Shown here in pieces: positions 9,284 to 54,720 of a DNA stretch of 64,000 nt. Every line of letters starts with the position of its first letter. The first letter of the stretch is position 1. The notes beneath the pieces were generated by a model. That model had not been told where the DNA came from. It ran no database searches and saw only the letters and a program-made list of their open reading frames with translations. Location of the stretch: assembly GCA_951813015.1 (NCBI GenBank), contig CATOTG010000002.1:325310-389309 (forward strand). The letters are read 5' to 3'. Source of the stretch: an uncultured Thermoanaerobaculia bacterium. Its GTDB lineage: Bacteria; Acidobacteriota; Thermoanaerobaculia; Multivoradales; Multivoraceae. The translations under genes were made by a program, and so were the position numbers.

Positions 9284-9287
9284 ACCC

Positions 9288-10174: not shown

Positions 10175-10208
10175 GGCCCGCGGCCGGTCCCGAGGGTTGC
10201 CACGGGCT

Positions 10209-11519: not shown

Positions 11520-11680
11520 TTGTCCACCTTCCTTCCCTGGCTGCCAGTTGGCGATTGTCCAGGTACGACTGCCATTGGCGCAGTCGCGCTTCTCCTTCGC
11601 CGCTGTAGACGTTCTTCGTGCGGGCTGAACAGCCGGATGGTTTGCGGGCGCCGGTTCGGGTGGTGGTTGCATTGGTCGGC

Positions 11681-36900: not shown

Positions 36901-38495
36901 TCGGCCTGATCGCCACCAACACGATCGCCCAGGGCGACACGCGCTCGACCGGATTGCGCTTCATCTGCAAGCACGGCGGGGAGATCTTCCGCGCCCGAAG
37001 ACGCGTCAAGTGGCCCGGCTTGGCCGCCGTCGTCGTCAGCGTCGTCCATCTGCACCGCGGTCCCTGGCATGGTCCGCGGATGCTCGACGGCGTGCCGCAA
37101 CCGAAGATCACGGCCTTCCTGTTTCACCGCGGCGGGCACGAGGATCCTGCACGCCTCGCCGAGAACGCCGGCAAGAGCTTCCAGGGCAGCATCGTGCTCG
37201 GCATGGGTTTCACCTTCGACGATACGGACACGAAGGGCGTGGCGACGCCGATTGCCGAGATGAACCGCCTGGTCGAACAGGACCCGAAGAACAGGGAGGC
37301 GATCTTCCCGTACATCGGCGGCGCCGAGGTCAACAAGAGCCCGACGCACGGGCATCACCGGTACGTGATCAACTTCCGGGACTACCCGCTGCGCCGGGCC
37401 GATCCCGGGTCCGCGGCGCCGGGCCGCCGGGGCGCGGCGGCGCAGAGCGGTCGCGCCCTCGGAGACAGTCCGGTTGCGTTGTCGACCGGTGAGCCCAACT
37501 CCCCCCACGTCAGCGGATCCCGACTCGGCCTCGGCGTCGTTCGAAGTGCCGTCCGCCGGGCGCCGCCTTCGCGCCGCTCTTTGGAGCGCGGCTCGCTTCA
37601 GGTGGATGATCGGCAGGAACCAGGATCGATCCCGGAAGGCACGGCCACGTCGTGGCACGGCGCCTCCGATGGGCAGCGCGAGGAGTGGCGCCGCAGCGGG
37701 ATCGTGCCGCATGACTATCCGGATCCGGTTGCGGCGGACTGGCCGGAGCTGCTGGCGATCGTTGAGGAGCGTGTCAAGCCCGATAGAGACGTGCAGAAGC
37801 GCAAGGCACTGCGCGAGCGCTGGTGGCAGTACGCCGAGAAGAGACCCGGGCTCTACAAAGCCATCGCCGACCTCGACCGCGTGTTGGCGATCAACTGTGG
37901 TGCAACGCCACATCTGGCCTTGGCGTTTCTTCCCGCCAAGATGGTCTTTGCGCACAGTTTGGCAGTCTTTCCCTTCCCCACCCACGCCGCCTTCTGCGCC
38001 CTCCAGTCCCGCCCTCACGAACTCTGGGCGCGCTTCTTCGGATCCTCTCTGGAGGACCGACTCAGGTACACGCCGTCCGACTGCTTCGAGACCTTTCCCT
38101 TCCCCGAGAACTGGGAGACTCACTCCGACCTGGAAGTCGCCGGCGCCGCGTACCACGGTTTCCGAGCCGACCTGATGCTCCGGAGCGTCGAGGGCCTGAC
38201 GAAGACGTACAACCGCTTCCACGATCCTGAGGAGCAGAGCCCCGGCATCACCCGGCTTCGCGAGCTCCACGCGGCCATGGACCGTGCCGTCCTCGACGCC
38301 TACGGCTGGACCGACATCTCCACCGACTGCGAGTTCCTCCTCGACCACGAGATCGACGAGAGACCTGAGGGCAAGAAAAAGAAGCCCTACCGCTACCGCT
38401 GGCCCGACGAAGTCCGCGACGAGGTGCTCGCCCGCCTGCTCGAACTCAACGCCCAACGCGCCGCCGAGGAGAAGCGCAGCGGTTCCCGCCGATGA
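33981..38495 (+). CDS. Large N6-adenine DNA methyltransferase, gamma class (DISARM DrmMI-like; PglX/Eco57I-like)
   Basis: 1504 aa. SAM-binding motif I VCDPAMGSGAFLVEA and catalytic motif IV IVGNPPFAGKN. Long N- and C-terminal extensions. No nuclease domain recognised. Confidence 0.75.
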   Translation: MPKLDANTRAHLEWLGFVRPTGLVVSPPALNKAGAVLERADREGQRLLRDAVSEREFKPGEGRQPWLPAFEDFARSVLGWRFSPAGYAGGNAAPIPDELSLHLPDCGETLRPDFAVRERSPDEDGSRWQLLVQTVEPGQSFDRAVSGAGKLEASPHSRMERLLRAKAVPAGLLFNGRALRLVSAPRGETSGWIDFQLADMLLVAGRPICTALRLLLNEQRLLALPRRQRLAALLADSRKYQNEVSERLAEQVLHALYELLRGFQAAHDASRKELLGDQLREDPGGIYHGLLTVVLRLVFLLYAEERDLLSEDATFVRHYSLASLHDRLRADAALHPDTMDQRYGAWAQLLALFRMIHNGAAAAGLRLPPRHGVLFDFDRFPFLEGRPPGSVAQNHERVAAPLVSDGTVHRALEKLLVLDGDRLSYRALDVEQIGSVYETMMGFRLERAEGPSCAIKPAKRHGAPATVNLAALLEKPVDRRVRWFRERTDRRLTDKAAKALRNARTIDELHAGLDRVIDRAATPDLAPNGHMILQPSDERRRSGSHYTPRELTEPIVRDTLEPILDRLRGRAAGSAGQGQATPAALSAPAEHGSRVRSPRHQGPATAPDLSAPGPSGPHPAPTTRTPRPEQILGLKVCDPAMGSGAFLVEACRQLGDVLVDSWHAHDAAPPIPPDEDETVHARRLVARNCLYGVDRNPVAVDLAKLSLWLTTLARDHPLTFLDHALRHGDSLVGLAPEQIQAFHWKGKEKRFQAGIETTWIREQVKKALRLRRAIQEARDDTPDRVLRDRLDEAEHELARVKQNGDLVVAAFFECQKPKDREALRRSFAAELQFETASGSGGKPSSRPGDDAQASVPASVSGHSGMTGRIRASRSDAISTIGWLEESRNGDPPLAPFHWAIEYPEVFLLEERENPGFDGIVGNPPFAGKNTIGNANVPGYKAWLKQLHEESHGNADLVAHFFRRAFTLVRAGGAFGLIATNTIAQGDTRSTGLRFICKHGGEIFRARRRVKWPGLAAVVVSVVHLHRGPWHGPRMLDGVPQPKITAFLFHRGGHEDPARLAENAGKSFQGSIVLGMGFTFDDTDTKGVATPIAEMNRLVEQDPKNREAIFPYIGGAEVNKSPTHGHHRYVINFRDYPLRRADPGSAAPGRRGAAAQSGRALGDSPVALSTGEPNSPHVSGSRLGLGVVRSAVRRAPPSRRSLERGSLQVDDRQEPGSIPEGTATSWHGASDGQREEWRRSGIVPHDYPDPVAADWPELLAIVEERVKPDRDVQKRKALRERWWQYAEKRPGLYKAIADLDRVLAINCGATPHLALAFLPAKMVFAHSLAVFPFPTHAAFCALQSRPHELWARFFGSSLEDRLRYTPSDCFETFPFPENWETHSDLEVAGAAYHGFRADLMLRSVEGLTKTYNRFHDPEEQSPGITRLRELHAAMDRAVLDAYGWTDISTDCEFLLDHEIDERPEGKKKKPYRYRWPDEVRDEVLARLLELNAQRAAEEKRSGSRR

Positions 38496-38639
38496 GAAGC
38501 CTGGACCGCCCTAGGTCCAGGTCCGATCACGTCGCGGCCCCGCTTTGCAGTCACCCCTGCCCGTGTGAGAGAGTTGTCCGCAGCAAGCCGACCGGCCCAC
38601 CAGTGCCGACACCTCCCTCGCCTTCCCGCGCACCCCGCC

Positions 38640-39635
38640 ATGACTAGCGGCAAGCTTTTGCGCCGACTCATCGTCTCGGGCGCCGATGGCGACCTCGCGG
38701 CATTCCGTGCCGCCGCGGACGACGTGATCGCCGACGAGCGGCAGAAGCAACACCACCTCCTGGCGAACGACCTCGAGTCCATTCTCTATGGCCGCACTCG
38801 CGCTCCCACGTCGCCTGGCCTGCGGAGGCTCGCCCAGGCGGTCCCCGAGGATCGAGAGCGTGGTTTGGCCTTGCTGTCACTGCGCGAGCCCGTCCGTGGA
38901 ATCGAGGACGTTGTTCTCTCAAGCTCCAACCGCTCCATCGTCCGGGCCGTCCTTCACGAGCAAAACCGCGAGGAACTGCTTCAAGCGCACGGGCTCCGGC
39001 CCGTCGATCGTCTCCTGTTGTGCGGACCGCCCGGCTGCGGCAAGACGCTGACCGCAGAGGTCATCGCAAATGAGCTCGGCAGACCTCTCGCCATCGTCCG
39101 GGTCGACAGCGTCGTGTCTTCTTTCCTGGGTGAAACCGCAGCCAATCTGCGTCGCGTCTTTGACTTCATCGAAACGACGCCGACAGTAGCGCTCTTCGAC
39201 GAGTTCGACGCCTTGGGCAAGGAGCGGGACGACTCCTCGGAACACGGCGAGCTGCGCCGCGTTGTCAACGCGGTGCTGCAGATGCTTGACGCATACGACG
39301 GCCGCAGCCTCATCGTCGCTGCCACCAATCACCAATCCATGCTCGACTCGGCCGTCTGGCGCCGTTTTGAGGAGATCCTCTATCTGAGGCTGCCGACCGC
39401 AAGGCAGATTCGGGAGCTCCTCCGCGTCAAGCTGCGCGGCGTACGCCGAGCCTTCGACATCGACGCGGTCGCCGTTGAGTCGCTCTTCCCCAAAAGTACG
39501 CACGCCGACGTCGAGCGCGTGCTTCGCCGAGCCGTCAAGGAAATGGTCCTGAGCGGTGAAGGTCGCCTTGGCCTGAACCACATCCGCAGGGCCGTGCGCC
39601 GAGAGAAGGCGCGGCGTCAACCTGGGCGTACTTGA
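38640..39635 (+). CDS. AAA+ ATPase (IetA-like)
   Basis: ATG 38640 (MTSGKLLRRL). Classic AAA domain LLCGPPGCGKTLTAEVIA, Walker B ALFDEFDAL, and SRH with Arg finger. Confidence 0.65.
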   Translation: MTSGKLLRRLIVSGADGDLAAFRAAADDVIADERQKQHHLLANDLESILYGRTRAPTSPGLRRLAQAVPEDRERGLALLSLREPVRGIEDVVLSSSNRSIVRAVLHEQNREELLQAHGLRPVDRLLLCGPPGCGKTLTAEVIANELGRPLAIVRVDSVVSSFLGETAANLRRVFDFIETTPTVALFDEFDALGKERDDSSEHGELRRVVNAVLQMLDAYDGRSLIVAATNHQSMLDSAVWRRFEEILYLRLPTARQIRELLRVKLRGVRRAFDIDAVAVESLFPKSTHADVERVLRRAVKEMVLSGEGRLGLNHIRRAVRREKARRQPGRT

Positions 39636-39644
39636 GTCAGGCCA

Positions 39645-42008
39645 TTGCAGCAGCGCCTCTTCGATCACACACAAATGCGCCCGCACCTGCGCCTCAACCG
39701 AGAGCGGCCAACCACAAAGCGCCGCCCGCCTGGCGGATTCCCTCCTTCCCCGCCTCCGCCACAGGATCCGCAGGTCCACGGAGCCTCGCTGCACCAGAAA
39801 CTGCGTTCCGCACGCGAAAAGGCCGCCGCGGCTCTCGGCGGCTACGACCAGCGACGATTGATCAAGCTCAAGCTGGCAACGCAAGTATCGCCGGAGGCTC
39901 TCGCCCGGATTTCGCCCGGGATGGAGGCAGTAAGCCAGGAGGGCGAGAAGCTGATTCTCTACTTTGCGACCGACGATGCGCTGGAGACGTTTGAGGCGAA
40001 ACTCTCAAGTCTCAGCCAAGGCGAGGCGGTAACGCGCAAGGACCTGCTCTACGCTCTCAGCGACATCGATCATTGGAGCGAGGACGACCGCACTGGCCGG
40101 AGCCTCAAGCAGCACGGTCTGCCACCGGGCAAATCGGTAACGCTCGATGTGGAGCTATGGCCGTTGGACAGCCCGCAGGCCCCAACGCTTGCCACTTTCT
40201 CCGAGTGGTTGAAGGAACGTGGCGGCAAGGTCCTGGACAAGGTGAAGAAGGCCTACCTTGTGCTGTGCCGTGTCCGTTGCGACCGCGCTGTTGCCAGCGA
40301 CCTGCTTCGACACCGGGACGTTCGCACAATCGAACTTCCTCCGCGTCTGGCCCTGCCCCGGGAGATTCTCAGCGCCGATGTCCAGAACATTCCCGAGGTT
40401 GAAGCGCCACTGACCGATGCACCCGCTATCGTGGTTCTCGACTCCGGCCTCGCTTCCGGACACCCTCTGCTCGCACCCGCCGTGGGAGATTCCCAGAGCT
40501 TCCTGCCGGGCAGGTCGGCAGCCGACGAACACGGCCACGGTACGCTGGTCTCGGGCATCGCCCTGTACGGCGACGTAGCGAAAGCAATGGGCGCCCAGAG
40601 CCTTGTCCCGGATCTGCGTCTTTTCAGCGGACGGATACTGGACGAAACGAACCAGAGCAACGAGTCCCTCGTCGAGAACCAGATCGAAGACGCGGTCCGC
40701 TACTTCGTGGATCACTACGGCTGCCGCGTGTTCAACCTCTCCTACGGCGATCCCAACAGGTCCTACGAAGGCGGCAGGATCACGGGCCTCGCTGTGACGC
40801 TGGATGCGCTGAGTCGAGAACTGGGTGTGCTGTTCGTTGTACCCACCGGCAACTACGAGGGCGGCCCTGAGGGGCCGGAAGACTGGCGAGAAGACTACCC
40901 TGACTATTTGTCTGAGTCGAGTGCCCGCCTTCTCGACCCGGCCCCCGCCTTGAATGCCCTCACCGTCGGAAGTCTGGCACGTTGGGAGAAAACGATTCAG
41001 GCCGAAAGCTATTCAGACGATCCTGCCTACCAGCCCGTAGCGCGAACCGACGAACCGTCCCCGTTTACCAGAAGCGGCCCTTCGGTGAGAGGCGCGATCA
41101 AACCGGATCTTGTCGACTACGGTGGCAATCGAGCCGTTGATCTGCGGACGGGAAGCGAACTCACCGTCGGCAGGGCCGGCATCGGCGAACGCTCGACATC
41201 TCGCGACTTCGCGGCCGGCTCGCCATTCGCCGAGGGCTGCGGAACAAGCTTCGCCGCTCCGCGAGTCGCGCATGTTGCCGCGCACCTGCTGAGGGAGCTT
41301 CCAGGCGCAAGCGCCAATCTCTGCCGCGCTCTCCTCGTCGCGCACGCGCGGACTTCGCTCGCCTGCGCTGAGCTCTTCTCAGATGACCGCGCCGCCCTCC
41401 GCCGAATCACCGGCTACGGTCTGATCGACCGCTCCGCTCTCTACCGTTCGCCCGACGATTGCGTCTCGCTCTGGGCGACGGAGTCGATGACCAACAATCG
41501 GCACCACTTCTACGAGCTGCCGGTCCCGGATGAGTTCTGGTCTTCAGGTCGCCGCGAGCGGAGGATCACCGTTGCTCTTGCCTACTCTCCCGCTGTGAGG
41601 ACGACGCGCATCGACTACCGCGCGGCGAAAATCAGCTTCAAGTTGGTACAGGCTCAGTCGCTCGACGAAGTCGCCAGCTGGTTCAGCGCGGTGGAAGACA
41701 ATCCGGGAGCAGCACCGGTTGCCGAGCTGCCCACGGGAAGGAACATCACGGAGCAAAACCGCTCAAAGGGAACAGTGCAGGCTTCGAGTTGGACCTTTAC
41801 CGTAGCGAACCAATCCAGAAAGAAAGGATCCTGGTTCGTGGTCGTCACGCGCAACGATTTCCCGTGGGGGCAGAACATCTCCAACGAAAATGAAGAATAC
41901 GCTCTCGTAGCCACGATCGCGGATCGGCAATTTGCCGAGGCGCGACTCTATTCGCAGATCCAGGTCAGACTCCGACAACGCGCTCGAGCTCGAGCGAGCG
42001 ACCGTTGA
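39645..42008 (+). CDS. Subtilisin-like S8 serine peptidase (IetS-like)
   Basis: About 780 aa, starting 10 nt after the AAA gene. Start is either TTG 39645 or ATG 39675. Catalytic triad contexts VVLDSG (Asp), HGHGTLVSG (His), GTSFAAPRVA (Ser). Confidence 0.65.
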   Translation: MQQRLFDHTQMRPHLRLNRERPTTKRRPPGGFPPSPPPPQDPQVHGASLHQKLRSAREKAAAALGGYDQRRLIKLKLATQVSPEALARISPGMEAVSQEGEKLILYFATDDALETFEAKLSSLSQGEAVTRKDLLYALSDIDHWSEDDRTGRSLKQHGLPPGKSVTLDVELWPLDSPQAPTLATFSEWLKERGGKVLDKVKKAYLVLCRVRCDRAVASDLLRHRDVRTIELPPRLALPREILSADVQNIPEVEAPLTDAPAIVVLDSGLASGHPLLAPAVGDSQSFLPGRSAADEHGHGTLVSGIALYGDVAKAMGAQSLVPDLRLFSGRILDETNQSNESLVENQIEDAVRYFVDHYGCRVFNLSYGDPNRSYEGGRITGLAVTLDALSRELGVLFVVPTGNYEGGPEGPEDWREDYPDYLSESSARLLDPAPALNALTVGSLARWEKTIQAESYSDDPAYQPVARTDEPSPFTRSGPSVRGAIKPDLVDYGGNRAVDLRTGSELTVGRAGIGERSTSRDFAAGSPFAEGCGTSFAAPRVAHVAAHLLRELPGASANLCRALLVAHARTSLACAELFSDDRAALRRITGYGLIDRSALYRSPDDCVSLWATESMTNNRHHFYELPVPDEFWSSGRRERRITVALAYSPAVRTTRIDYRAAKISFKLVQAQSLDEVASWFSAVEDNPGAAPVAELPTGRNITEQNRSKGTVQASSWTFTVANQSRKKGSWFVVVTRNDFPWGQNISNENEEYALVATIADRQFAEARLYSQIQVRLRQRARARASDR

Positions 42009-42293
42009 CCAATATGCCGCCCTCAACCTCGCCCTTCCCGTTCAACCGCCACCGTCTCGCCGCCTCTGAGCTTCTCGGAGTCCGTTCCGGCACAACATCG
42101 AGGCCCGGGCCGACCGGCGCGGGCAAGTGACGGCGTTCACCTTCGACAGCCTGACCAGCATCCCCCGCCCCGTCCCCTGCAGCGAACTTCAGAGACTGGA
42201 TTGCGTCGGTCCCGCGAACTACGTGGCGGCAGAACCGATTTCACACGATCAACTCCTGAGGATCGTTCAGGCGGGCTTCCGAGAATCGGGCTC

Positions 42294-42782
42294 ATGACCG
42301 ACATCCTCATGTCGATCAAGCCGCCGTACGTCGACATGATCGTCTCCGGCTCCAAGACGGTCGAGATCCGGAAGCGAGCTGTCCGGGTACCAGCGGGAGC
42401 AAGGATCTGGATCTACGCAACCAGTCCGCGGCGGCAGGTAGTCGCATCCGCCCGGCTCGAAGAAGTCGTGCTCGACACGGCGGACGAGATCTGGCGCACC
42501 TTCGGCGACCGGGCCGGCATCGACCGCCTCGACTTCAACGCCTACGTTGGAGACAGCAGACTCGTCGCCGCACTATCCCTGACCGACGTCACCGCACTCG
42601 CCGCGCCACTATGCCCTCGCAGCGAGACGCCGGCATTCCGCCCGCCGCAGTCCTACTCGTTCCTTCGTGATGCCGAACTTCTGGCAGCCTTGGAGGAAAG
42701 GCATAGCACGGAGCGTTCAGCAGACGAGAACCAGATCAGTCCTCCGGCGCAACCAACCGAAACGGCCTTCGCAACCCCGTAG
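42294..42782 (+). CDS. ASCH-domain (PUA-like) protein
   Basis: N-terminus MTDILMSIKPPYVDMIVSGSKTVEIRKR matches the ASCH/EVE-type beta-barrel signature. About 160 aa. Start chosen inside ORF 42201..42782. Confidence 0.6.
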   Translation: MTDILMSIKPPYVDMIVSGSKTVEIRKRAVRVPAGARIWIYATSPRRQVVASARLEEVVLDTADEIWRTFGDRAGIDRLDFNAYVGDSRLVAALSLTDVTALAAPLCPRSETPAFRPPQSYSFLRDAELLAALEERHSTERSADENQISPPAQPTETAFATP

Positions 42783-42998
42783 ATCGGGCCGTGGACTCCC
42801 GGTCCACGAGGTCCGGCGCAACTCTCACGCTCCGCCGTCGTGCTACCGTCGCTTTGACAGCCATCGTCCCCCGGTCCGCCTGGGCCACACAGTTGCGGAT
42901 CGACTGCGCTGCCGGCTCGAACTCGCGAGCCAGTTGGTCCGGGGTTGACTGCCGAGCTCTTTTCGAACAACGAAGCCGCTGGCAATTCCAAGAAAACC

Positions 42999-44156
42999 CT
43001 AATGAAACAAGGCCTCCTGCTTCGGGAGAAGCGACAGTGACCCTCCGCGCCGCCTGAGCCGTTTTTGCTGCTTTAGTTCCGCCTCTACATCTCCAAGGTG
43101 CTTCCACCTCCAGATCTTCGAGCGCAGCTCCTCCTTCAGGACGTCCCTCAAGACCGGCCCCGCCTGGAGCCTGGCCACCAACCACCGACGCAGCGGCGCC
43201 AGATCGGGCTTCTCTTCGATCAAAAGGAACTGGTTCGGGTTCTCGGATCGCCGCACGCTCATGCTGCCGCCGGGGCAAACCGTCCAGACACACTCCTTCA
43301 TCAGGTCCCGTCCGTCATCGTGATTCGTCAGATGGAGCAGAAAGAAGCGCACCGCATCGCCACCCGAGACCATCCGCACATGGGTCCACCACTTCGCGCC
43401 TACTCGATCAGCCAGCAGCTTCGCGGCCTGATCGGCCCTCTCAACCATCGTTTCGCCCCGGATGTTCCGCCACGCATCGCCTCCGAAGAGCCGGTCGAGA
43501 TTCTCGGCCTGACCGTGTCCAGCTTTGAGCTCCTGGTGCATCGCCATGTCGAGTTCGCGCCACATCACGTTGACGAAGAGCTCGACGCGCTCAAACTCCA
43601 TGATCTCCGCGAGCAGGTCGCCCGGCAAACTGAAGCCATACGGATCCACGAAGAGGAAGGCAGGCGCCATCTGCTGACCCGCTGACTTCAGGGCGTCGAC
43701 CTCCCGGCGCAACACCTCGAACGCGTCGCCCGGCTCGACATCGACGACGATCCGGCGGGGCAGATCTTCAATCCGCTCAACCTCTCCCCTCAGCTCGGAC
43801 GCGTTCTGTTCATCCAGCTCCAGAAACACGAACCGGAACTCGGAGTTTTCCAAGAGCCGGTCTCTCGCCGTGTGGTCAAGCAGCGTCCTCAGCGCCACGA
43901 GTGGCGAACCGGGATTCTCGCCTGCATAGCTACCACGCCCGGCGTGAGTGTCAAAGTACACGACTTTGCCGGACCACAAGCCGAGTTTGGGAAACCAGCC
44001 TTTCAGGTAGGCGTCAATCAGCTCGTGCTTGACCCGCTGGAAACGACCGTAGTCCCTCCAATGATCCGGCTGTGGATCGACAGATCTGTTCACAGTCCCT
44101 TGGTCCTCAGTTCGCCGGGAACTCGTCGTAAGTCCTACCCTTGAGCAGGCGCCCAT
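42999..44156 (-). CDS. Three-Cys-motif partner protein TcmP-like
   Basis: 385-aa ORF encoded immediately downstream of a Gp37/Gp68 gene, overlapping it by 14-50 nt depending on the start. An alternative GTG start lies about 21 codons in. Confidence 0.55.
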   Translation of the reverse strand: MGACSRVGLTTSSRRTEDQGTVNRSVDPQPDHWRDYGRFQRVKHELIDAYLKGWFPKLGLWSGKVVYFDTHAGRGSYAGENPGSPLVALRTLLDHTARDRLLENSEFRFVFLELDEQNASELRGEVERIEDLPRRIVVDVEPGDAFEVLRREVDALKSAGQQMAPAFLFVDPYGFSLPGDLLAEIMEFERVELFVNVMWRELDMAMHQELKAGHGQAENLDRLFGGDAWRNIRGETMVERADQAAKLLADRVGAKWWTHVRMVSGGDAVRFFLLHLTNHDDGRDLMKECVWTVCPGGSMSVRRSENPNQFLLIEEKPDLAPLRRWLVARLQAGPVLRDVLKEELRSKIWRWKHLGDVEAELKQQKRLRRRGGSLSLLPKQEALFH

Positions 44157-44832
44157 TCACATGCTTCCGCGGCCCTCCCCACTGCTTGAAGAAGAAGGGG
44201 ACGTCATCTCGCCGGCACTGAAGCAGGACATTGATCACCCACGCTTCCAGCATGGGCCGCGCTCCGGGACCGCTCTCGCCGCCGACGATGACCCAGTCGA
44301 TGCCGGTCAGGTCGAACTCCTCCAGATCCTCAAGAAGCGGTTCGATTGAGGCAAAGCGAACCGCTGCCGGCGTCTGCCGTAACGCCTGCAGCCGCGGCAA
44401 GCCCTGCCGTCGGTTCTCGACGCTCACTCCAAACCAGACGTTCGGCAACTCACCCATCCAGGAAAGAGGCCCCACAAGAAGCTCGTGCATTCGCTCGTGT
44501 CTCTTCGTGAGCACCTGGTAGGTGTGTCGCTGGACTTCGCTCATCACCCGGCCCACCTCGGCGATGTAGCTCACGGGAACCTGCGGATGGAAGAGGTCGC
44601 TCATCGAGTTCACGAACACGCGGCGAGGCCGACGCCAGCGACGCGGCTGATCAAGCTTGGCCGGTACCAGGCGAAGGTCGAAACCCTGCTCGAAGGGGTG
44701 CCTCGGGACGCCACGGAAGCGCTCCGAGAAGCGCTCTGCGTAGCAATGTGCGCAGCCTGCACTGACCTTTGTGCAGCCGAGCACCGGGTTCCAGGTCGCG
44801 TCGGTCCATTCGATCGCACTCTTCTCTGACAT
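44107..44832 (-). CDS. Phage Gp37/Gp68 family protein (DUF5131)
   Basis: N-terminus IEWTDATWNPVLGCTKVSAGCAHCYAE is the family three-Cys signature. ATG 44832 is preceded by GGAGAG. 241 aa. Confidence 0.7.
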   Translation of the reverse strand: MSEKSAIEWTDATWNPVLGCTKVSAGCAHCYAERFSERFRGVPRHPFEQGFDLRLVPAKLDQPRRWRRPRRVFVNSMSDLFHPQVPVSYIAEVGRVMSEVQRHTYQVLTKRHERMHELLVGPLSWMGELPNVWFGVSVENRRQGLPRLQALRQTPAAVRFASIEPLLEDLEEFDLTGIDWVIVGGESGPGARPMLEAWVINVLLQCRRDDVPFFFKQWGGPRKHVNGRLLKGRTYDEFPAN

Positions 44833-44868
44833 GCAGGCTCTCCAGGTGCCGGGCCTAACGCATCGCCA

Positions 44869-44898
44869 AGCCCAGCCCGTTATACAGGATCATGCATG
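44869..44898 (-). promoter_or_regulatory. Candidate sigma70-like promoter for the gp37-tcmP operon: TTGCGC-17 nt-TATAAC on the minus strand
   Basis: Read as reverse complement. The spacer contains the palindrome tcatgcatga. This is a locally AT-richer stretch in an otherwise high-GC locus. Confidence 0.3.
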
Positions 44899-44983
44899 AA
44901 AGCGCAACTAGGGCGTAACCGGAGCCGCACCATCCAAGCTCTTTGCGGAACAGGAGCGGGAGGACCGCCCGCCCGCCGGGAAG

Positions 44984-46019
44984 TTGCGCGCCGACGCACT
45001 GGCTCTGGTGGCGGAGAGCGCGCTTGCGGGAGGTCTCGATCCTGGAACCAGCGGCGACCGATACCAGGTCGTCGTTCACGTCAACGACCGTGAGTTGGAA
45101 GCCCCCGAATCCGCGGCCACGAGGAACCGGCCCGGCGTTTCCGCGGGAACGCCGCGGCAGGCCGAAGTCCAGGCCAACGGCGCGGCGGAAGTGAACGGCC
45201 GCGTTCCCGCGGGAACGTCGGTGCACCCCGAAGTTCAGGCCAACGGAGCGGCAGGAGTAGACGGCCACGTTCCCGCGGGAACGTCGGGGGACCCGGCGCG
45301 ACGCTCTGTCGCAGCCGAATCTGCCAGGACCGAATCTGCCGACTGCGAGCACTCCGCCGGCGCCTGGGTGGGCAGGTCGCATGTCCGCGTTTCCGCTGAA
45401 ACGGCTCAGGCGCATCGCCTGCGACGCCGGGAAGGTCGTCATGCGGCACCGTTCCGGGCAGATCCTGAGCGTGGGCCGCAAGACGCGGACCATCCCGCCG
45501 CCCATCCGCCGCGCCCTGGAGTTCCGCGACCGGGGCTGCCGCTTCCCCGGCTGCACCTCGCAGCACTGCGACGCCCACCACATCGAGCACTGGGCCGACG
45601 GCGGCGAAACGAAGCTCTCGAACCTCGTGCTGCTCTGCCGCCGACACCACCGCCTGCTCCACGAAGGCGGTTTCAGCCTGCGCATGGACGACCAAGGCGC
45701 CGTGGGGTTCTACAACTCGCGCGGGCGACTGCTCGAACGGAGCCCGGCGCCGCCGGTCGTCGGCGACGACGCCGCCCGGGAGTTGATCGAACACCTGGAG
45801 GATGCTGGCATCCTGATCACCGGGGACGAATCGATGCCGGCCTGGAACGGTGAACCGATGGACCTGCACTACGTCATGAAATGCCTGTGGAGACCGCCTC
45901 CGCACCTCGAAGCCATCGTGGCCCGGGAGCGGGGTACCTCCAAACAGCTCGTCGACCCGGCGCAGCCAGAGTCTCCTCACCAGACGAGCAGCTCCTCACT
46001 CTCGCCCTTCGGGCGCTAG
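44984..46019 (+). pseudogene. DUF222/HNH endonuclease (13E12-type), 5'-truncated and frameshifted
   Basis: Two frames carry homologous pieces. Frame 44984..: ADALALVAESALAGG...RYQVVVHV (DUF222 middle region). Frame 45381..46019: HNH core with CRFPGC...HHIEHWADGG...LLCRRHHRLLHEGG. No complete N-terminal domain. Confidence 0.6.
45135..45283. repeat. Tandem ~66-bp duplication carrying three copies of the 16-bp palindrome cgttcccgcgggaacg
   Basis: Palindromes at 45135-45150 (one mismatch), 45201-45216 and 45268-45283. They lie inside the HNH pseudogene. Confidence 0.6.
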
Positions 46020-46116: not shown

Positions 46117-46431
46117 TCAGTGCCCGAGCCTTCTCGACAAGAAGTCCCGCTCGACCGTCAACTCCCCGATCTTCGCCTGCAGGTCCCTGACCTCCTCCTC
46201 CCGGTCACGGCGACGCTCCGGCCCCGCCGAGAAGGTCTCCTGCATCCCCTCGACCGCCTTCCGCTTCCAACTGCCGACCTGGTCCGGGTGAACGCCGTGC
46301 CGCGACGCAATCGCCGAAATCGGTTTCCCCTGGCGCAGCGCCTCGAGCGCCACCTTCGACTTCTCCTGGCTCCTCCTCTCGGTTGAGGAGTACACCTTAG
46401 CCACCTGTCCAGTTCTTCGGGGCCACCTCAT
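46117..46431 (-). mobile_element. IS3-family transposase orfA (HTH) remnant with no orfB
   Basis: 104 aa (...KVALEALRQGKPISAIASRHGVHPDQVGSWKRK...ELTVERDFLSRRLG) matches the IS3/IS911 OrfA consensus. No integrase-domain ORF or inverted repeats follow. Confidence 0.65.
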
Positions 46432-47191: not shown

Positions 47192-47201
47192 GAAAGTCCG
47201 A

Positions 47202-47417
47202 GTGAGCGAATCGAACGACCGGGACGCCACGGCGCAGACGTCCGTCGAGGTCCGCGAGGACATCGTCGACGCCCTCAAGGTCGACCTCGTCGGCCCCGGC
47301 GCCGGCCACGAACTCGCGCGCGAGCGGTTGCCCGCAAACGAAGCGCCCTCGAAGTGGCATCTCGCCGGCTTCCTGATTCCATCCGGCACGCCGCCGGTTA
47401 AGCGGCTCAACTGCTGA
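47202..47417 (+). pseudogene. Diverged 5' fragment (about 70 codons) of a drmA paralog
   Basis: VSESNDRDATAQTSVEVREDIVDALKVDLVGPGAGHELARERLPANEAPSKWHLAGFLIPSGTPP aligns, at about 60% identity, with the N-terminus of the 1141-aa drmA at 49396 (MSEPNNHDAAAVTSLDVRRTLVEAIELDLIGPWRGHELARERLPVFEAPSNWYLTGFLIPTGTPP). It ends in a stop after 71 codons. Confidence 0.55.
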
Positions 47418-47591: not shown

Positions 47592-48797
47592 GTGACCGCC
47601 GACCGCCGCCTGTTGACTCGCGTTGCCCTCCGCAACTACAAGAGCATCGCCGCATGCGACGTGTCGCCAGCGAAGCTGTGCTTCCTCGTAGGTCCGAACG
47701 GCTCCGGCAAGAGCAACTTCCTCGACGCGCTTCGGTTCATCGCCGAGTCTCTTCGGTCTTCGATGGATCAGGCGCTGCTCGCACGCGGAGGCATCAACGA
47801 GGTGCGGCGGCGCTCTGGTGGCCACCCGACGCACTTCACCATCCGTGTCGAGTTCGCCCTCGACGCATCGCGAGGCCACTATGCGTTCACTGTCGGGTCC
47901 AAACGCCAGGCCCGCTACCAGGTCCAGCGCGAAGAGTGTCTCGTCGTACCGACGAACGGGCAGAGCGCTCACTTCTTCAAGGTCGAGAGCGGGCGAGTTA
48001 CCAAGACGACCCTCTCGCCAGCGCCAGCGGCACTGCCCGATCGCCTGTACCTTGTGAATGTCTCCGGTCTCAAGGCGTTTCGGCCCGTCTACGACGCCCT
48101 CTCGAGGACTGGCTTCTACAACCTGAACCCGGCAGCCATACGCGACCTTCAGCCGCCCGACACGGGCGAACTCCTCAAGCGGGACGGGAGCAACATCGCA
48201 AGTGTCCTGGCCAACCTCGCCACGAGTTCGCCTCCGTCAAAACGGAAGATCGAGGAGTACCTCGGGACCGTCGTTCCTGGCATGGCGGGCGTCGGTCGTC
48301 ATCGGCTCGGTCCCAGAGAGACGCTCGAGTTCCGGCAGGAGGTGCGCGGTGCGGAGCATCCCTCGCGCTTCCTCGCCAACAACATGTCCGACGGAACGCT
48401 TCGCGCACTCGGCCTGCTCGTCGCACTCTTTCAGGGCGCGAGCAACGGCGCCGCAGGGCCCGGACTGGTGGGCATCGAAGAGCCGGAAGTCGCGCTTCAC
48501 CCCGCAGCCGTGGAAGTCCTCATCGATGCGCTGCTTGACGCTGCTGAACACGCCCAGATCCTCGTCACGAGCCACAGCACCGAACTGCTCGATCACCCGG
48601 AAATTCGGGACGACTCGATCCTTGCCGTGGTAGCAGAGCACGGCGAGAGCCGCATCGGTCCGCTGGACGAGGTTGGGCGGTCGGCGTTGAAGAAGCACCT
48701 CTTCACCGCCGGCGAACTGCTCAGAATGAACCAACTCGATCCGGATCCAGTGCTCTCGAAACCCGGGCAAATCAGGCTCTTCGGTCCCGAGCCCTAG
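47592..48797 (+). CDS. AAA_21/SMC-like ATPase (OLD/AbiL-type ATPase component)
   Basis: 401 aa. Walker A FLVGPNGSGKSNFLDAL. ABC-type signature and Walker B LVGIEEPEVALHP. Typical of two-gene ATPase plus Toprim-like systems. Confidence 0.7.
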   Translation: MTADRRLLTRVALRNYKSIAACDVSPAKLCFLVGPNGSGKSNFLDALRFIAESLRSSMDQALLARGGINEVRRRSGGHPTHFTIRVEFALDASRGHYAFTVGSKRQARYQVQREECLVVPTNGQSAHFFKVESGRVTKTTLSPAPAALPDRLYLVNVSGLKAFRPVYDALSRTGFYNLNPAAIRDLQPPDTGELLKRDGSNIASVLANLATSSPPSKRKIEEYLGTVVPGMAGVGRHRLGPRETLEFRQEVRGAEHPSRFLANNMSDGTLRALGLLVALFQGASNGAAGPGLVGIEEPEVALHPAAVEVLIDALLDAAEHAQILVTSHSTELLDHPEIRDDSILAVVAEHGESRIGPLDEVGRSALKKHLFTAGELLRMNQLDPDPVLSKPGQIRLFGPEP

Positions 48798-48799
48798 CC

Positions 48800-49399
48800 G
48801 TGCTCACGATCGCCTCCATCGTGGAAGGTCACGGTGAAGTCGCGGCCCTGCCGATCCTTCTGCGGAGGATCGCGGCAGTGGTAGCGCCCGAAGAACCCAT
48901 CTCCGTGCCCCGACCCATCCGGGTAAAGCGGCAACTCGTAGTGAAACCCGGAGAGTTGGAGCGGTATGTCGAGGTTGCCGCGAGCCGAGCCGGTGCCGGA
49001 GGAGCAATCCTGCTCGTGCTGGACGCCGATACCGACTGTCCGGCTGAACTCGCCGTCGAGTTGTGCCGGCGCGCCCGAGCCGCACGGGCGGACCGTGCCA
49101 TCCGCACCGTACTGGCCAAGGCGGAGTACGAGTCGTGGTTCGTCGCCGCGGTCGAGTCGATTGCGGAACGGCCGCTGCACGCTGTCGCACCGCCGCCCGA
49201 TCCAGAGTCGATCAGGGACGCCAAGGGCTGGTTGAGTCGAAACGCGCTGGCTCACGGAACCTACCGCCCCACACGCCACCAGGCCAGATTCACTGCTGCC
49301 TTCGACCTGAGCGCCGCGCGGTCGGCGCCCTCGTTCGACAAGCTGTGGCGTGACGTAACCTCCCTGCTCGTTCCGCCGGCAACGATCATCTCCGAATGA
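48800..49399 (+). CDS. DUF4276-family protein (Toprim-like partner of the AAA_21 ATPase)
   Basis: 199 aa (IVEGHGEVAALPILLRRI...LVLDADTDCP...KAEYESWF). GTG 48800 sits 2 nt after the ATPase stop. Its own stop overlaps the drmA start as ATGA. Confidence 0.55.
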   Translation: MLTIASIVEGHGEVAALPILLRRIAAVVAPEEPISVPRPIRVKRQLVVKPGELERYVEVAASRAGAGGAILLVLDADTDCPAELAVELCRRARAARADRAIRTVLAKAEYESWFVAAVESIAERPLHAVAPPPDPESIRDAKGWLSRNALAHGTYRPTRHQARFTAAFDLSAARSAPSFDKLWRDVTSLLVPPATIISE

Positions 49400-52300
49400 G
49401 CGAACCGAACAACCACGACGCTGCGGCCGTGACGTCTCTCGATGTCCGCCGGACCCTCGTCGAAGCGATCGAACTCGACCTCATCGGCCCATGGCGAGGT
49501 CACGAGCTTGCCCGGGAGCGGCTGCCGGTTTTCGAGGCGCCATCCAACTGGTACCTCACCGGCTTCCTGATTCCGACCGGAACGCCGCCGGAACTGAGCC
49601 GGGACGACGAGCAGGACGACGGCGGGCCTGACGAGACGCCCGAGCGACCCGGCCTCGCCGAGGAATCGACGGAGGGCCGGATGGCAGCGAAGAAGCTCTT
49701 CTTCCCTTCCTCGATGGGTCTGAGCTTCCTCGCAACCGCGGACAGCCGGCTCGATGTCTCCGTTCGCTGGGGCGACTACGAACTGGTCGCAACCGCCACC
49801 GATGCTGTGGAAGGCGACGGCGGCAACGACAAGGCCGGGGCGCAATACTGGCAGCGGAACACCGGAGAGGAGACCGTGGAGATCGCCCTCCAGATAGCGA
49901 CGGAGGAGCCCGTCCACGACGTACCCGGCTCGGGCGGGCTGAGACTTCACGTCGAGCAGAGGCCCATCTCCCAGATCGCCTCCATCCCCGAAGGCACGCG
50001 GGCTGTCAGCGTGTTCCTCGTGAACGAGCGGGAGCCTGCGACTTCGCTCCAGGACACCGAGCCGACCTACGCGTTCCAGGCCGAAGTCGAGATCCGCAGC
50101 GAACAGCCGTTCGTGCCGAGACCGGACCCACGCTCGGCGGAGACCGATGACTGGGATGAACAGGTCGCGGCCCTTCACTACCTGGACGCCCCGAGCTACG
50201 CCACCGGTCACAACGTCGGCGCCACCTGGGACGTCGACAGCGACGGGAAGTGCCGGAAGATCCGCACGACCTGGATGCCCCGGGCAGAGGTCGAGAAGAC
50301 GGAGACCAGCGAACCGGACGGGGTCGACCTGTCGATGGACCGGCTCGGCCAGCTTGCCGGCGCCGACGATGCGGACAGGACCCTGCGACCGCTCGTCGCC
50401 GCTTACCGCGAGTGGATCAACGAACAGCGCAGGGCGCTCGAGGAAGTTCCCGAAGAGCACGCGGAGACCGCGGTCGAACTCCTCGATCAGGCCAAGTTCG
50501 CCGCCTCGCGGATGGAGCGAGGGGTCGAGGCGCTCCAAAGCGACGAACAGGCACTCGACGCCTTCCGCCTGGCGAATCGCGCCGTGGCCCAGGCTCTTCG
50601 GCGCCGAACCCCTGAGGTCTTCGAAGATGCAGCGCCCCGATGGCGGGCATTCCAGCTCGCCTTCATCCTGCTGAACCTCGCGCCGCTCGCGGACCCCACC
50701 GACCCGCACCGGGAGATGGTCGACCTGCTCTTCTTTCCCACCGGCGGCGGCAAGACGGAGGCCTACCTGGGTCTCGCCGCCTTCGCGATCGTACTGAGGC
50801 GGCTCCGGAATCCGGAGGCGGGCGGGCGGGCAGGCGCGGGCGTCTCTGTTGTCATGCGCTACACGCTGAGGCTGCTGACCCTCGATCAACTCTCGCGCGC
50901 CGCGGGCCTGATCTGCGCGCTGGAACTGGAGCGGGCCGACGCGCCCGAGCGCTACGGCGAGTGGCCGTTCGAGATCGGCCTGTGGGTCGGCAGGGCGGCG
51001 ACGCCGAACCACATGGGGCGAAAGGGCGCCGAACCGCCCGGTTCCGCCCGCCAGAAGGTGCGGCGCTTCAAGGCGAAACCCGGCTACGAGCCGTCACCCG
51101 TCCCCATTGAGGACTGCCCCTGGTGCGGTACGAAGTTCGAGCCCAGCTCCTTCACGCTGCAACCGAACGACGACGAGCCGACCAACCTGCGCGTGATCTG
51201 CGCAAACTGGGAGTGCGAGTTCTCCGGCGACCGGCCGCTCCCCATCGTCGCCGTCGACGAACCGTTGTACCGCCGCCTGCCCTGCTTTCTCGTTGCCACG
51301 GTGGACAAGTTCGCGGCCCTGCCGTGGGAGGCCCGCGCCGGCGCGCTCCTCGGCGGCGCCGACCGACACGATGCGGAGGGCTTCTACGGCGCGGCGGCGC
51401 CGAGCCGGGGCCAGCCGCTGCCCTCGCCCCTGCCGCCGCCCGACCTCATCGTCCAGGACGAACTCCACCTGATCTCCGGACCCCTGGGGTCGATGGCCGG
51501 CCTCTACGAGACGGCGGTCGAGGCGCTGGCGCTCCGCGGTTCCGGCAGCCGCGGCGCGAAACCGAAGATCGTCGCCTCGACCGCCACCACCCGGCGGGCG
51601 CAGGAACAGATCCGGGCCCTCTTCGGCCGTCAGATGACCCGCGTCTTCCCGCCGCTCGGACCGTCGCGGCGCGACTCGTTCTTCTCCCAGGTCGTACCGG
51701 CGAGCGTGAAGCCGGCTCGGCTATACCTCGGCATCGCGTCGCCGGGCAGGAATGCGAAGGTCCAGATGCGGCGCGTTCTGCTGCCGCTGATGGCGGCGGC
51801 GCAGCAGGCCTTCCGGAACGCGGGCGGCCACGACAACGAGAACAACGCCGCCGACCCGTACATGACGGTGCTTGCCTACTTCAACAGCCTTCGCGAACTC
51901 GGCGGTGCGCGGCGCATCGTCGAGGAGGAGGTCCAGAACACTCTGGGCCGCTACGGAGCAAGGCGCAGACTGAACCAGGAGAGGAGGTACTTCCGCGATC
52001 GCGGGCGTCTCTACGAGCCGCTGGAGTTGACCTCCCGGGTCTCGACGGCCCAGGTCGCCGCTGCGCGACGGCGGCTTGGTCAGCCTTTCCATGCGACGGA
52101 CCGGGTCGACGTGGCCCTGGCGACGAACATGATCTCCGTCGGCCTCGACATCCAGCGACTCGGGCTCATGGTCGTCATGGGTCAGCCGAAGACGACCGCC
52201 GAGTACATCCAGGCGACCAGCCGAGTCGGCCGCGCAGACGCGAAGCCCGGTCTCGTCATCACCCTGCTCAACGCCCACAAGCCGCGCGACCGCTCCCACT

Positions 52301-52821
52301 ACGAACGCTTCCGGCACTACCACGAGACCTTCTACCGCGCGGTCGAGGCTGGAAGCGTCACGCCGTTCGCGGCCCGGGCGTTGGACCGGGGAATGGCCGG
52401 AACCCTCGTCGCGCTCGCTCGGCACGCGGAACCGTCTCTGACGCCGGCCACCGCTCCGCCAGGGCTCGCCGAGGTCCGCGCGCAGCTCGAGGCACTGCTC
52501 CTCGATGCGTTCTCCGAGCGGCTCAGCCGCCAGAACATGCCGGAAGCCGAGCGGGAAGAGAAGCTCGGCTCGGTTCGTCGGCGCGTAGGCGACCTGCTCG
52601 ACTCCTGGCAGTACGTCGTGGACGACTATCGGGACACCGGCACCGCGGTGAAGTACCAGCAGTACGAGCGGGAGCAGGGCAAACCACTGCTCCGCGAGAT
52701 GTTGGACACGGACTTCGAGTCACCCCATCACAAGAAGTTCCGCGTCAACCGCTCGCTTCGTGACGTGGAGCCCCAAGTGAACCTGTTCATCACGAAGCCG
52801 GCCGGTGGCGGAGCGGATTGA
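49396..52821 (+). CDS. DISARM DrmA-like helicase
   Basis: 1141 aa. Helicase motif I LFFPTGGGKTEAYLGL, DExH-like DELHLISGP, helicase C region and a Zn-ribbon CPWCGTKF...C. Followed by DUF1998 and PLD genes with overlapping start/stop codons. Confidence 0.65.
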   Translation: MSEPNNHDAAAVTSLDVRRTLVEAIELDLIGPWRGHELARERLPVFEAPSNWYLTGFLIPTGTPPELSRDDEQDDGGPDETPERPGLAEESTEGRMAAKKLFFPSSMGLSFLATADSRLDVSVRWGDYELVATATDAVEGDGGNDKAGAQYWQRNTGEETVEIALQIATEEPVHDVPGSGGLRLHVEQRPISQIASIPEGTRAVSVFLVNEREPATSLQDTEPTYAFQAEVEIRSEQPFVPRPDPRSAETDDWDEQVAALHYLDAPSYATGHNVGATWDVDSDGKCRKIRTTWMPRAEVEKTETSEPDGVDLSMDRLGQLAGADDADRTLRPLVAAYREWINEQRRALEEVPEEHAETAVELLDQAKFAASRMERGVEALQSDEQALDAFRLANRAVAQALRRRTPEVFEDAAPRWRAFQLAFILLNLAPLADPTDPHREMVDLLFFPTGGGKTEAYLGLAAFAIVLRRLRNPEAGGRAGAGVSVVMRYTLRLLTLDQLSRAAGLICALELERADAPERYGEWPFEIGLWVGRAATPNHMGRKGAEPPGSARQKVRRFKAKPGYEPSPVPIEDCPWCGTKFEPSSFTLQPNDDEPTNLRVICANWECEFSGDRPLPIVAVDEPLYRRLPCFLVATVDKFAALPWEARAGALLGGADRHDAEGFYGAAAPSRGQPLPSPLPPPDLIVQDELHLISGPLGSMAGLYETAVEALALRGSGSRGAKPKIVASTATTRRAQEQIRALFGRQMTRVFPPLGPSRRDSFFSQVVPASVKPARLYLGIASPGRNAKVQMRRVLLPLMAAAQQAFRNAGGHDNENNAADPYMTVLAYFNSLRELGGARRIVEEEVQNTLGRYGARRRLNQERRYFRDRGRLYEPLELTSRVSTAQVAAARRRLGQPFHATDRVDVALATNMISVGLDIQRLGLMVVMGQPKTTAEYIQATSRVGRADAKPGLVITLLNAHKPRDRSHYERFRHYHETFYRAVEAGSVTPFAARALDRGMAGTLVALARHAEPSLTPATAPPGLAEVRAQLEALLLDAFSERLSRQNMPEAEREEKLGSVRRRVGDLLDSWQYVVDDYRDTGTAVKYQQYEREQGKPLLREMLDTDFESPHHKKFRVNRSLRDVEPQVNLFITKPAGGGAD

Positions 52822-54665: not shown

Positions 54666-54720
54666 CGATGTACCGGGCCGCACCTCCGCCGGCATCGGCG
54701 ACCGGCACGACCGGGCGAAG

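Follow-up and report, generated by a model that had tools for sequence, protein, structure and literature searches.

A DUF5131-TcmP gene pair beside a decayed ASCH unit in a DISARM island of an uncultured Thermoanaerobaculia bacterium: a possible DNA base-modification cassette

Introduction

The protein families TcmP (TIGR04474) and DUF5131 (Gp37/Gp68; PF07505) are encoded by a conserved gene pair, which has been named for more than 10 years with no function attached, and which is now listed as a defence candidate. Here, we describe one instance of this pair in a 64,000-nt stretch of DNA from an uncultured Thermoanaerobaculia bacterium (“the window”), where it lies together with an ASCH gene in the interval 42294-44832 of a DISARM island. 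The closest described systems are entries of PADLOC-DB v2, namely PDC-M30 and PDC-M41 for the pair and PDC-M11 for the ASCH gene. The PDC models were derived by “guilt-by-embedding” in BREX, DISARM and type I restriction-modification (R-M) loci, where 96.7 % of embedded genes are co-oriented with the host system; validation covered seven systems embedded in Hma, and the 145 PDCs are predictions (Payne et al., 2024; bioRxiv 10.1101/2024.01.29.577857). A literature search found no functional study of DUF5131, TcmP, or PDC-M30/M41, and PDC-M30 only in survey papers. A table of regulated genes from Sinorhizobium meliloti contains the tcmP gene SMa2243 and, beside it, hna (SMa2245) (PMC12445080).

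Several characterized enzymes provide points of reference. In RadicalSAM.org, DUF5131 forms megacluster 5-2, beside spore photoproduct lyase (SPL, 5-3) (PMC9477430), and the SplB-like radical S-adenosylmethionine (SAM) “photolyases” are LexA-regulated repair genes that have been linked to ImuB-C (PMC3765255, PMC4951493). Characterized ASCH proteins include ZmASCH, a ribonuclease for single-stranded RNA (PMC5615036), as well as YqfB, an amidohydrolase of N4-acetylcytidine (ac4C), and ac4C erasers (PMC6972931; bioRxiv 10.64898/2026.02.27.708502).

A preliminary description of the interval had joined ASCH, TcmP, and Gp37/Gp68 into one undescribed module. We find that the interval consists of two unrelated units: a decayed leftover of a PDC-M11-like system, and an intact DUF5131-tcmP cassette, the enzymology of which could be novel.

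The two proteins of the cassette

An open reading frame (ORF) map combined with profile searches identifies ASCH, tcmP, and DUF5131 as genuine genes and bears out all three family calls made earlier. The two genes of the pair are:

42999-44093, minus strand: tcmP, 364 aa, GTG start; modelled RlmJ-like class I SAM-methyltransferase fold with a C-terminal winged helix-turn-helix (wHTH)
44107-44832, minus strand: DUF5131/Gp37-Gp68 gene, 241 aa; predicted compact radical-SAM-type enzyme nearest to SPL

TcmP matches TIGR04474 at an E-value of 1.7e-45 (156 bits; NCBIfam cutoff, 53), and DUF5131 covers the full-length profile of PF07505 at 5e-95 (318 bits; gathering cutoff, 28.9). The adjacent genes also match both components of the PADLOC candidates (PDC-M30A, 3.3e-17; PDC-M41A, 2.5e-9; PDC-M30B, 2e-99; PDC-M41B, 4.3e-101), which makes the pair a member of PDC-M30/M41. 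The term “undescribed” is too strong, as the pair is already catalogued as PDC-M30/PDC-M41 and the ASCH gene as PDC-M11B.

Comparison of TcmP with methyltransferases at the structural level, as had been proposed, revealed an RlmJ-like class I SAM-methyltransferase fold in the AlphaFold2 model (predicted local distance difference test, pLDDT, 81; predicted template modelling score, pTM, 0.81), complete with SAM and substrate motifs, and the best structural relatives are rRNA and tRNA methyltransferases. Invariant among aligned homologues are K22-H23, DTHAGRG, GSP, and D150-P151-Y152-x-F154. In a profile search of the PDB, it was DTHAGxG and GSPL that could be aligned to RlmJ (E ~1.2, a motif match only); the N-terminal KH and motif IV presumably correspond to those of RlmJ as well. 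At the level of sequence families, the window TcmP matched no Pfam family at E-values up to 10, the RlmJ profile included, and PDB sequence searches with TcmP and DUF5131, either as single sequences or as profiles, gave no significant match. The C-terminal ~75 residues of TcmP (about 290-364) form the wHTH, for which GMT-wHTH is found just under the cutoff in close homologues. This is the most variable part of the family, and homology to the sister genome (L002) also breaks there, which is consistent with a role as specificity domain. A TcmP profile search of 1.84 billion representatives retrieved 3,963 clusters at E <= 1e-3.

The DUF5131 model (pLDDT, 79) shows a partial TIM barrel of the radical SAM type, with SPL as the best structural match, so that the radical-SAM-like fold considered for Gp37 in the preliminary description is indeed found. 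A C20-x6-C27-x2-C30 motif of non-canonical spacing is invariant in 31 close homologues; in divergent homologues, C20, C30, and the GGESG motif are invariant, C27 is shifted in two, and a fourth cysteine, C206, is unconserved. From motifs and model together, DUF5131 is predicted to belong to the radical SAM enzymes and to bind a [4Fe-4S] cluster through three Cys. A further resemblance is to TIGR04471, “radical SAM mobile pair protein A.” The SPL profile PF20903 was not matched and PF07505 was the only family reported, i.e., the likeness to SPL is structural only.

Distribution and mobility of the pair

Among 185,579 species genomes, a pattern scan detected 80 loci with TcmP relatives. DUF5131 is adjacent to and co-directional with tcmP in 65 of them (52 upstream, 13 downstream), and the remaining 15 are mostly contig edges, fragments, or a variant with a different partner (see below). 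In the window, DUF5131 ends 13 bp upstream of tcmP on the same strand, the partner relation that defines TIGR04474; the pairing of gp37/gp68 with tcmP, which the preliminary description had called obligate, is upheld by this adjacency. A disrupted TcmP beside an intact DUF5131 occurs in about six loci and the reverse in about six, a count that is blurred by long-read frameshift errors. The genome of a relative holds a second DUF5131 copy (P0143). Furthermore, TcmP is found on 41 plasmids, mostly of Streptomyces and haloarchaea, with neighbors that include ImmA, JAB/MPN, PIN, and ThiF. On actinobacterial plasmids and in Gordonia phages, the pair is not co-directional but has a convergent or divergent arrangement.

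For the surroundings of the pair, 279 genes were assessed, namely the two closest neighbors per side in about 77 loci. Flanking genes include DrmA/DrmB, type II and type IIG methylases, resolvases, and many housekeeping genes; no phage structural family is among the top Pfam families. No TcmP-subfamily relative was confirmed among 2.9 M IMG/VR contigs, and TcmP occurs in 10 of 50,697 phage records, all of them Gordonia phages. By these three measures the pair is not prophage cargo, in agreement with the earlier statements that phage structural genes are absent from its vicinity and that it belongs to defence rather than to phage cargo, as far as the cargo is concerned. DrmA/DrmB lie within 10 kb of the pair in at least seven other genome loci from Thermoanaerobaculia, other Acidobacteriota, and Gemmatimonadaceae, and the pair is located inside or beside DISARM in three metagenome contigs as well; in two loci (L038, L009), it is co-oriented with DISARM. 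The association with DISARM is far above chance for a rare system. This recurrence, together with the lack of a prophage context, makes a conflict-related or DNA-modification role reasonable. As a side observation, the PADLOC model for mad2 of the MADS system matched 9 of the 279 flanking genes (loci L005-L084; best E-value, 6.9e-19), which share no common similarity cluster or Pfam family.

Among phages, ThankyouJordi of Gordonia (L085, 4992-6859) encodes gp41 (DUF5131) and gp42 (TcmP-like, annotated as methyltransferase) convergently, with the integrase gene (gp38) on one side and that of the immunity repressor (gp43) on the other; gp42 is co-oriented with the repressor. Prophage-encoded defences of actinophages cluster between integrase and immunity repressor. 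DUF5131 itself is found in 180 phage records, mostly of Mycobacterium, Gordonia, and Burkholderia phages, where it lies in DNA-metabolism regions; it also occurs in cyanophages, haloarchaeal viruses, and one algal virus. In the Gordonia phage Bakery, DUF5131 abuts a C5 DNA methylase gene, to which it is translationally coupled.

A sister genome (L002) has a backbone of ~95 % identity on both flanks of the island (window positions 64000-55771 and 26583-20227). Nothing lies between these flanks except for a Phd-like gene, an IS110 transposase, and DUF5131-tcmP at 92.9 % identity. With matching flanks and different content, 26583-55771 of the window is a ~29-kb variable island at a chromosomal hotspot, at which the sister genome keeps the pair in the absence of DISARM, IetAS, or ASCH. 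The GC content at third codon positions (GC3) is 0.76-0.78 for the pair and 0.72-0.78 for the embedded genes overall, compared to 0.84-0.91 for DISARM, backbone, and housekeeping genes. Low GC3, flanking IS3 and HNH remnants, the pair-only hotspot, and the occurrence on plasmids all indicate that the pair is mobile. Taken together, DUF5131-TcmP is, to judge from these comparisons, a self-standing, intact, and horizontally mobile two-gene cassette.

Alternative partners and an optional third gene

In five Acidobacteriota loci without DUF5131 (L055, L056, L060, L067, L075), tcmP is followed by a gene for a 340-aa radical SAM protein of the SplB family (PF20903, 4.3e-19). These TcmP proteins belong to the same subfamily (39-44 % identity; PDC-M30A, 6.8e-19), and the tcmP-splB pair lies between the gene of an ImuB-type Y-family polymerase (IMS) and dnaE2 (e.g., L055, 8374-15530). 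A literature search found no published description of an imuB-tcmP-splB-dnaE2 operon, in which the SOS mutagenesis cassette has taken up a TcmP paralogue. Two other radical SAM genes precede TcmP on a Halopiger plasmid. Given the SplB variant, the Halopiger neighbors, and the resemblance of DUF5131 to TIGR04471, TcmP looks like a general partner of DNA-directed radical SAM enzymes of the SPL clade.

In the four closest relatives, a gene of ~450 aa for a YopA-like protein (PF26308/PF27216) directly follows tcmP, resulting in a three-gene operon:

L088, 13638-14987: YopA-like gene
L089, 7618-8964: YopA-like gene
L090, 6317-7690: YopA-like gene
L040, 11098-12438: YopA-like gene

The window and the other 75 loci show no trace of this gene.

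The ASCH gene as leftover of a GNAT-ASCH unit

The neighboring part of the interval comprises:

42094-42291, plus strand: 3'-end remnant of a GNAT gene, ~66 codons (tblastn)
42294-42782, plus strand: ASCH (PUA-like) gene, orphan B component of a PDC-M11-like pair (PF04266, PDC-M11B, ZmASCH)
42787-42996, minus strand: probable remnant of an IS3-family OrfA (helix-turn-helix) gene in the spacer between ASCH and tcmP (translation, similarity)

The ASCH protein matches PF04266 (E-value, 1.6e-7; 32.4 bits, gathering cutoff 21.2), PDC-M11B (3.9e-30), and the ZmASCH structure, PDB 5GUQ (6e-16). Homologues were found on three metagenome contigs that carry related DISARM islands (L088, L089, L090). In L088, ASCH is preceded by a co-oriented gene for a 741-aa GNAT-domain protein, which overlaps ASCH by 4 bp and matches PDC-M11A (1.2e-10) as well as Acetyltransf_1. 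The 198 bp directly 5' of ASCH in the window (42094-42291) encode a stretch with 70 % amino acid identity to residues 675-740 of this protein, and end in the same manner as an ATGA overlap with the ASCH start. Of the two components that define PDC-M11, the window thus has the B gene, and of the A gene a C-terminal remnant of 66 codons; the IetAS block occupies the place where the remainder of the A gene stood. A 56-aa ORF at 42127-42297, considered as a small partner gene of ASCH, is the tail of the deleted GNAT gene and has no PADLOC match; for selection on this ORF, the sequences of the window and of a 96-98 % identical relative are too alike to inform. As the window keeps only the last ~66 residues of the GNAT protein, ASCH is the leftover half of a different two-gene candidate, the surviving B gene of a PDC-M11-like unit and a bystander to the DUF5131-TcmP cassette. 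The activities of characterized ASCH proteins would also fit a GNAT partner better than a radical SAM pair. In L088, PDC-M11 (GNAT and ASCH), PDC-M02A/B (DUF4365 and a 378-aa protein), and PDC-S32 (AbiJ_NTD4) stand in a row (7779-13570) before the reversed TcmP cassette, evidently a dense stack of candidate defence systems.

Could ASCH nevertheless belong to the cassette, for instance by reading a modification that is introduced by the pair? Such a three-gene module might be suspected because ASCH and the pair lie convergently within a few kb of each other in five DISARM islands (those of the window, L001, L088, L089, and L090), but all five represent one clade with shared synteny. Among the 80 TcmP loci of other genomes, ASCH is found within 10 kb of TcmP only in a near-identical Thermoanaerobaculia relative, and it is absent from this range in about 75 others, the very distribution by which the preliminary description would have given up its proposal. 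Moreover, L002 has the pair but not ASCH, an insertion sequence (IS) remnant separates ASCH from tcmP in the window, and in L088 the PDC-M02 and PDC-S32 genes do so, where ASCH overlaps and is co-oriented with its actual partner, GNAT (PDC-M11A). By distribution and partner, the three-gene module is rejected, and we consider it extremely improbable.

Proposed activity of DUF5131-TcmP and alternative explanations

Family membership, folds, motifs, obligate pairing, mobility, and genomic contexts of the cassette are shown above; a DNA substrate, a cooperation of the two enzymes, and a biological role are inferred. Tentatively, we favor DUF5131-TcmP as a mobile, DNA-directed module for covalent base modification that acts in genetic conflict. 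TcmP would bind DNA via its variable C-terminal wHTH and present a flipped base in its RlmJ-type SAM-binding pocket, which resembles that of N6-adenine methylases. The SPL-like DUF5131 would reductively cleave SAM at its three-Cys [4Fe-4S] cluster and perform radical chemistry at the same DNA site. Together, they could install or remove a covalent base modification, which might mark and protect the DNA of the carrying element or serve to discriminate foreign DNA. The link to DNA is drawn from the SplB-partnered TcmP in imuB-dnaE2 loci, from phage DUF5131 among DNA-metabolism genes, and from the C5 methylase of Bakery. A farther-reaching and more doubtful version is that this machinery represents a previously unrecognized class, to which the SplB-TcmP sibling would also belong, and in which an RlmJ-like methylase/wHTH subunit guides the radical SAM enzyme in writing or erasing a non-canonical modification of DNA bases.

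Several observations weigh against the proposal of a base-modification module. TcmP reaches no Pfam methyltransferase model, and its motif IV is DPY(G)F instead of (D/N)PPY, so that TcmP may not methylate at all. Its nearest solved relatives act on rRNA, not on DNA. Of the 180 phage DUF5131 genes, 170 have no TcmP, hence DUF5131 is not strictly dependent on it, and there is no obvious effector for a role in defence. The nearest relatives carry the YopA-like third gene that the window lacks, so the window copy could be incomplete. The proposed analysis of neighborhoods does reveal defence-island, DISARM, and plasmid contexts, but within two genes per side many flanking genes are housekeeping genes, and the enrichment in defence islands is real, though not universal. 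Finally, PDC-M30/M41 are themselves predictions.

The same evidence can be read in other ways. The pair might follow the logic of R-M or addiction systems, with DUF5131 damaging unmarked DNA by a radical lesion or strand break and TcmP acting as the protective methylase, which would amount to an anti-phage system with a radical SAM “restriction” arm. Obligate pairing, the location in defence islands, on plasmids, and in lysogeny regions of prophages, the convergent or divergent genes on actinobacterial plasmids and in Gordonia phages (as is often the case for R and M), the coupling of a phage DUF5131 to a C5 methylase, and the PADLOC listing as defence candidate all speak for this option. However, a protective methylase would not be expected to partner also with a SplB-like enzyme in an SOS mutagenesis operon, most phage DUF5131 genes lack TcmP, and the disruption of either partner is equally frequent (about six loci each, with the blurring noted above), which argues against an asymmetry of toxin and antidote; an R-M-like function is thus rather unlikely. 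Repair of DNA, by which DUF5131 would directly reverse a lesion (of the UV type or inflicted by competitors) that TcmP recognizes and flips out, so that mobile elements protect their own DNA, is suggested by SPL as best structural match, by the TcmP-SplB variant within imuB-dnaE2 operons, by the SOS regulation of SplB-like genes, and by DUF5131 in cyanophages, haloarchaeal viruses, and an algal virus. Yet, the DUF5131-type pair is never beside lexA, imuB, or dnaE2 in the loci examined, DUF5131 has no SPL Pfam match, and its distribution (patchy, in multiple copies, flanked by IS, and embedded in DISARM) is one that conflict genes typically show and repair genes do not, which leaves repair unlikely.

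RNA as the substrate would be in line with the rRNA and tRNA methyltransferases among the best structural relatives of TcmP. In this case, the RlmJ-like TcmP and DUF5131, with radical chemistry like that of Cfr/RlmN, would modify rRNA or tRNA and thereby, for example, confer resistance to ribosome-targeting toxins or antibiotics, or reprogram translation during infection; Cfr itself is carried by mobile elements. We regard this as improbable, since the top structural match of DUF5131, SPL, is a DNA enzyme, TcmP has a wHTH, and the contexts are centered on DNA (DISARM, DNA methylases, imuB-dnaE2, phage replication regions).

If the pair does write or remove a DNA mark by radical chemistry, this would be new enzymology for phage-host conflict and DNA modification, and the further-reaching version would imply a radical-SAM-based system of self/non-self discrimination in defence islands, a chemistry that is not known so far from defences of the R-M type. 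Handles on this proposal are provided by the RlmJ-like fold with its variable wHTH, the SPL-like partner, the SplB partner in SOS operons, and the pair-only sister locus.

Gene arrangement and promoter

Upstream of the pair, two further features were recorded:

44879-44907, minus strand: weak promoter-like TTGCGC-N17-TATAAC (read by eye)
44984-46019, plus strand: 5'-truncated, frameshifted DUF222/HNH endonuclease pseudogene (distal frame: HNH, 7e-7, and DUF222, 0.0021; proximal frame by translation)

ASCH and the pair had been called divergent, but they are convergent, with stops at 42782 (plus) and 42999 (minus), 216 bp apart. The overlap reported for the two genes of the pair likewise does not stand: an overlap of 50 bp would require that tcmP starts at ATG 44156, whereas 34 aligned homologues have ~362-366 aa (a few with longer C-terminal tails) and start at the position of GTG 44093, which is preceded by AAGGGA. 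In a 96 %-identical relative, tcmP is also called from this position, 13 bp past the DUF5131 stop. The ATG start is therefore an unlikely choice, and the 13-bp gap follows from homologue length; co-transcription of DUF5131 and tcmP, which had been claimed as well, is likely.

A dedicated sigma-70-like promoter is not borne out, as a consensus scan of 42000-45500 gave 0 sites. The promoter-like sequence (44907-44879) matches 3/6 and 5/6 positions, lacks the final T, and lies 47 nt 5' of the DUF5131 ATG. The surrounding spacer had been described as AT-richer, which is modestly true for the 100 bp 5' of DUF5131 (58-59 % GC, compared to 63-73 % nearby) and not for the whole spacer 44833-45380 (69 % GC). 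A terminator-like hairpin with a T-rich tail (43013-43029, minus strand) overlaps the last tcmP codons; hairpins of this kind are no more numerous in the region than expected by chance.

The DISARM island

The island is built around a class 1 DISARM operon, into which the interval is embedded:

30536-55635, plus strand: class 1 DISARM operon, interrupted by embedded genes (~11 kb)
30536-33922, plus strand: drmD (PADLOC DrmD, 4e-302)
33981-38495, plus strand: drmMI (PADLOC DrmMI, 0)
38565-39635, plus strand: IetA (2.1e-93)
39645-42008, plus strand: IetS (7.8e-257)
49396-52821, plus strand: drmA (PADLOC DrmA, 2e-275)
52818-54665, plus strand: drmB (PADLOC DrmB, 7e-81)
54616-55635, plus strand: drmC (PADLOC DrmC, 2e-68)

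All five genes of class 1 DISARM are present, with E-values from 2e-68 down to 0. IetA/IetS are embedded upstream of the ASCH remnant block, and a Phd/PIN pair and the truncated, frameshifted HNH/DUF222 scar are found in the surroundings, which confirms the location given for the interval, between IetAS and a toxin-antitoxin/HNH scar inside DISARM.

Within the interval, the translation of 42787-42996 (minus strand) contains STPDQLAREFEPAAQSIRNCVAQADRG and, over 24-25 aa, is 72-79 % identical to multi-copy sequences from plasmids, among them one with the annotation IS3 family transposase. The remnant has no similarity to the IS3 OrfA gene at 46117-46431, of which it was considered a copy; other IS3-like sequences match instead. 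It is a probable recombination scar at the junction between separately acquired cassettes (ASCH and tcmP).

The HNH/DUF222 pseudogene contains a 66-bp tandem repeat (2.4 copies, 84 % matches; 45135-45294, Tandem Repeats Finder), each unit of which carries a GTTCCCGCGGGAAC-type palindrome; its translation is a repeated VPAGTS...EVQANGAA peptide. In L023 (13422-15167), L068 (11998-13527), and L079 (10702-12678), the TcmP pair adjoins intact DUF222-HNH genes that resemble this scar. Their position and orientation vary, and they may be mobile HNH elements with the same target regions. Another DISARM-embedded system is represented by an AAA_15/21 ATPase gene and a gene of 199 aa (47592-49399, plus strand), which match HEC-01A/B (1.6e-159 and 3.1e-67). 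The 5' end of drmA has a duplicated remnant just 5' of these genes (47197-47397), which is 84 % identical to drmA of L088/L040, but only ~75 % to that of the close relative L001. This pattern suggests that the HEC-01 region was inserted by recombination.

Comparison with known systems

The window locus adds a further example to a candidate that is already catalogued, with a decayed bystander as ASCH neighbor. Like PDC-M30/M41, it has adjacent genes of these two families, and as in the discovery set the pair occurs embedded in DISARM; it differs in that TcmP fits the A models only as a distant member, and that the pair lies on the strand opposite to DISARM. Compared to the conserved pair described by TIGR04474 and PF07505, both profiles are passed far above their cutoffs and the relation of adjacent partners holds, to which the present analysis adds the fold assignments, the SplB-like alternative partner, and the optional YopA-like third gene. 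PDC-M11 is represented by its B component, and the unit is incomplete, with the A gene reduced to a 66-codon remnant. Among characterized ASCH proteins, it is ZmASCH that the window protein matches (6e-16).

At the level of single enzymes, TcmP is akin to the 23S rRNA m6A2030 methyltransferase RlmJ (PDB 6QE5) and to LPL1258 (PDB 2OO3) in fold, with no significant match of sequence families; in contrast to RlmJ, it has DPY(G)F in place of DPPY, an extra C-terminal wHTH, an obligate radical SAM partner, and a mobile context. DUF5131 resembles SPL in structure, but compared to SplB (PDB 4FHC; PF20903) it is ~100 aa shorter, has a CX6CX2C instead of a CX3CX2C motif, and lacks a match to the SPL family in Pfam.

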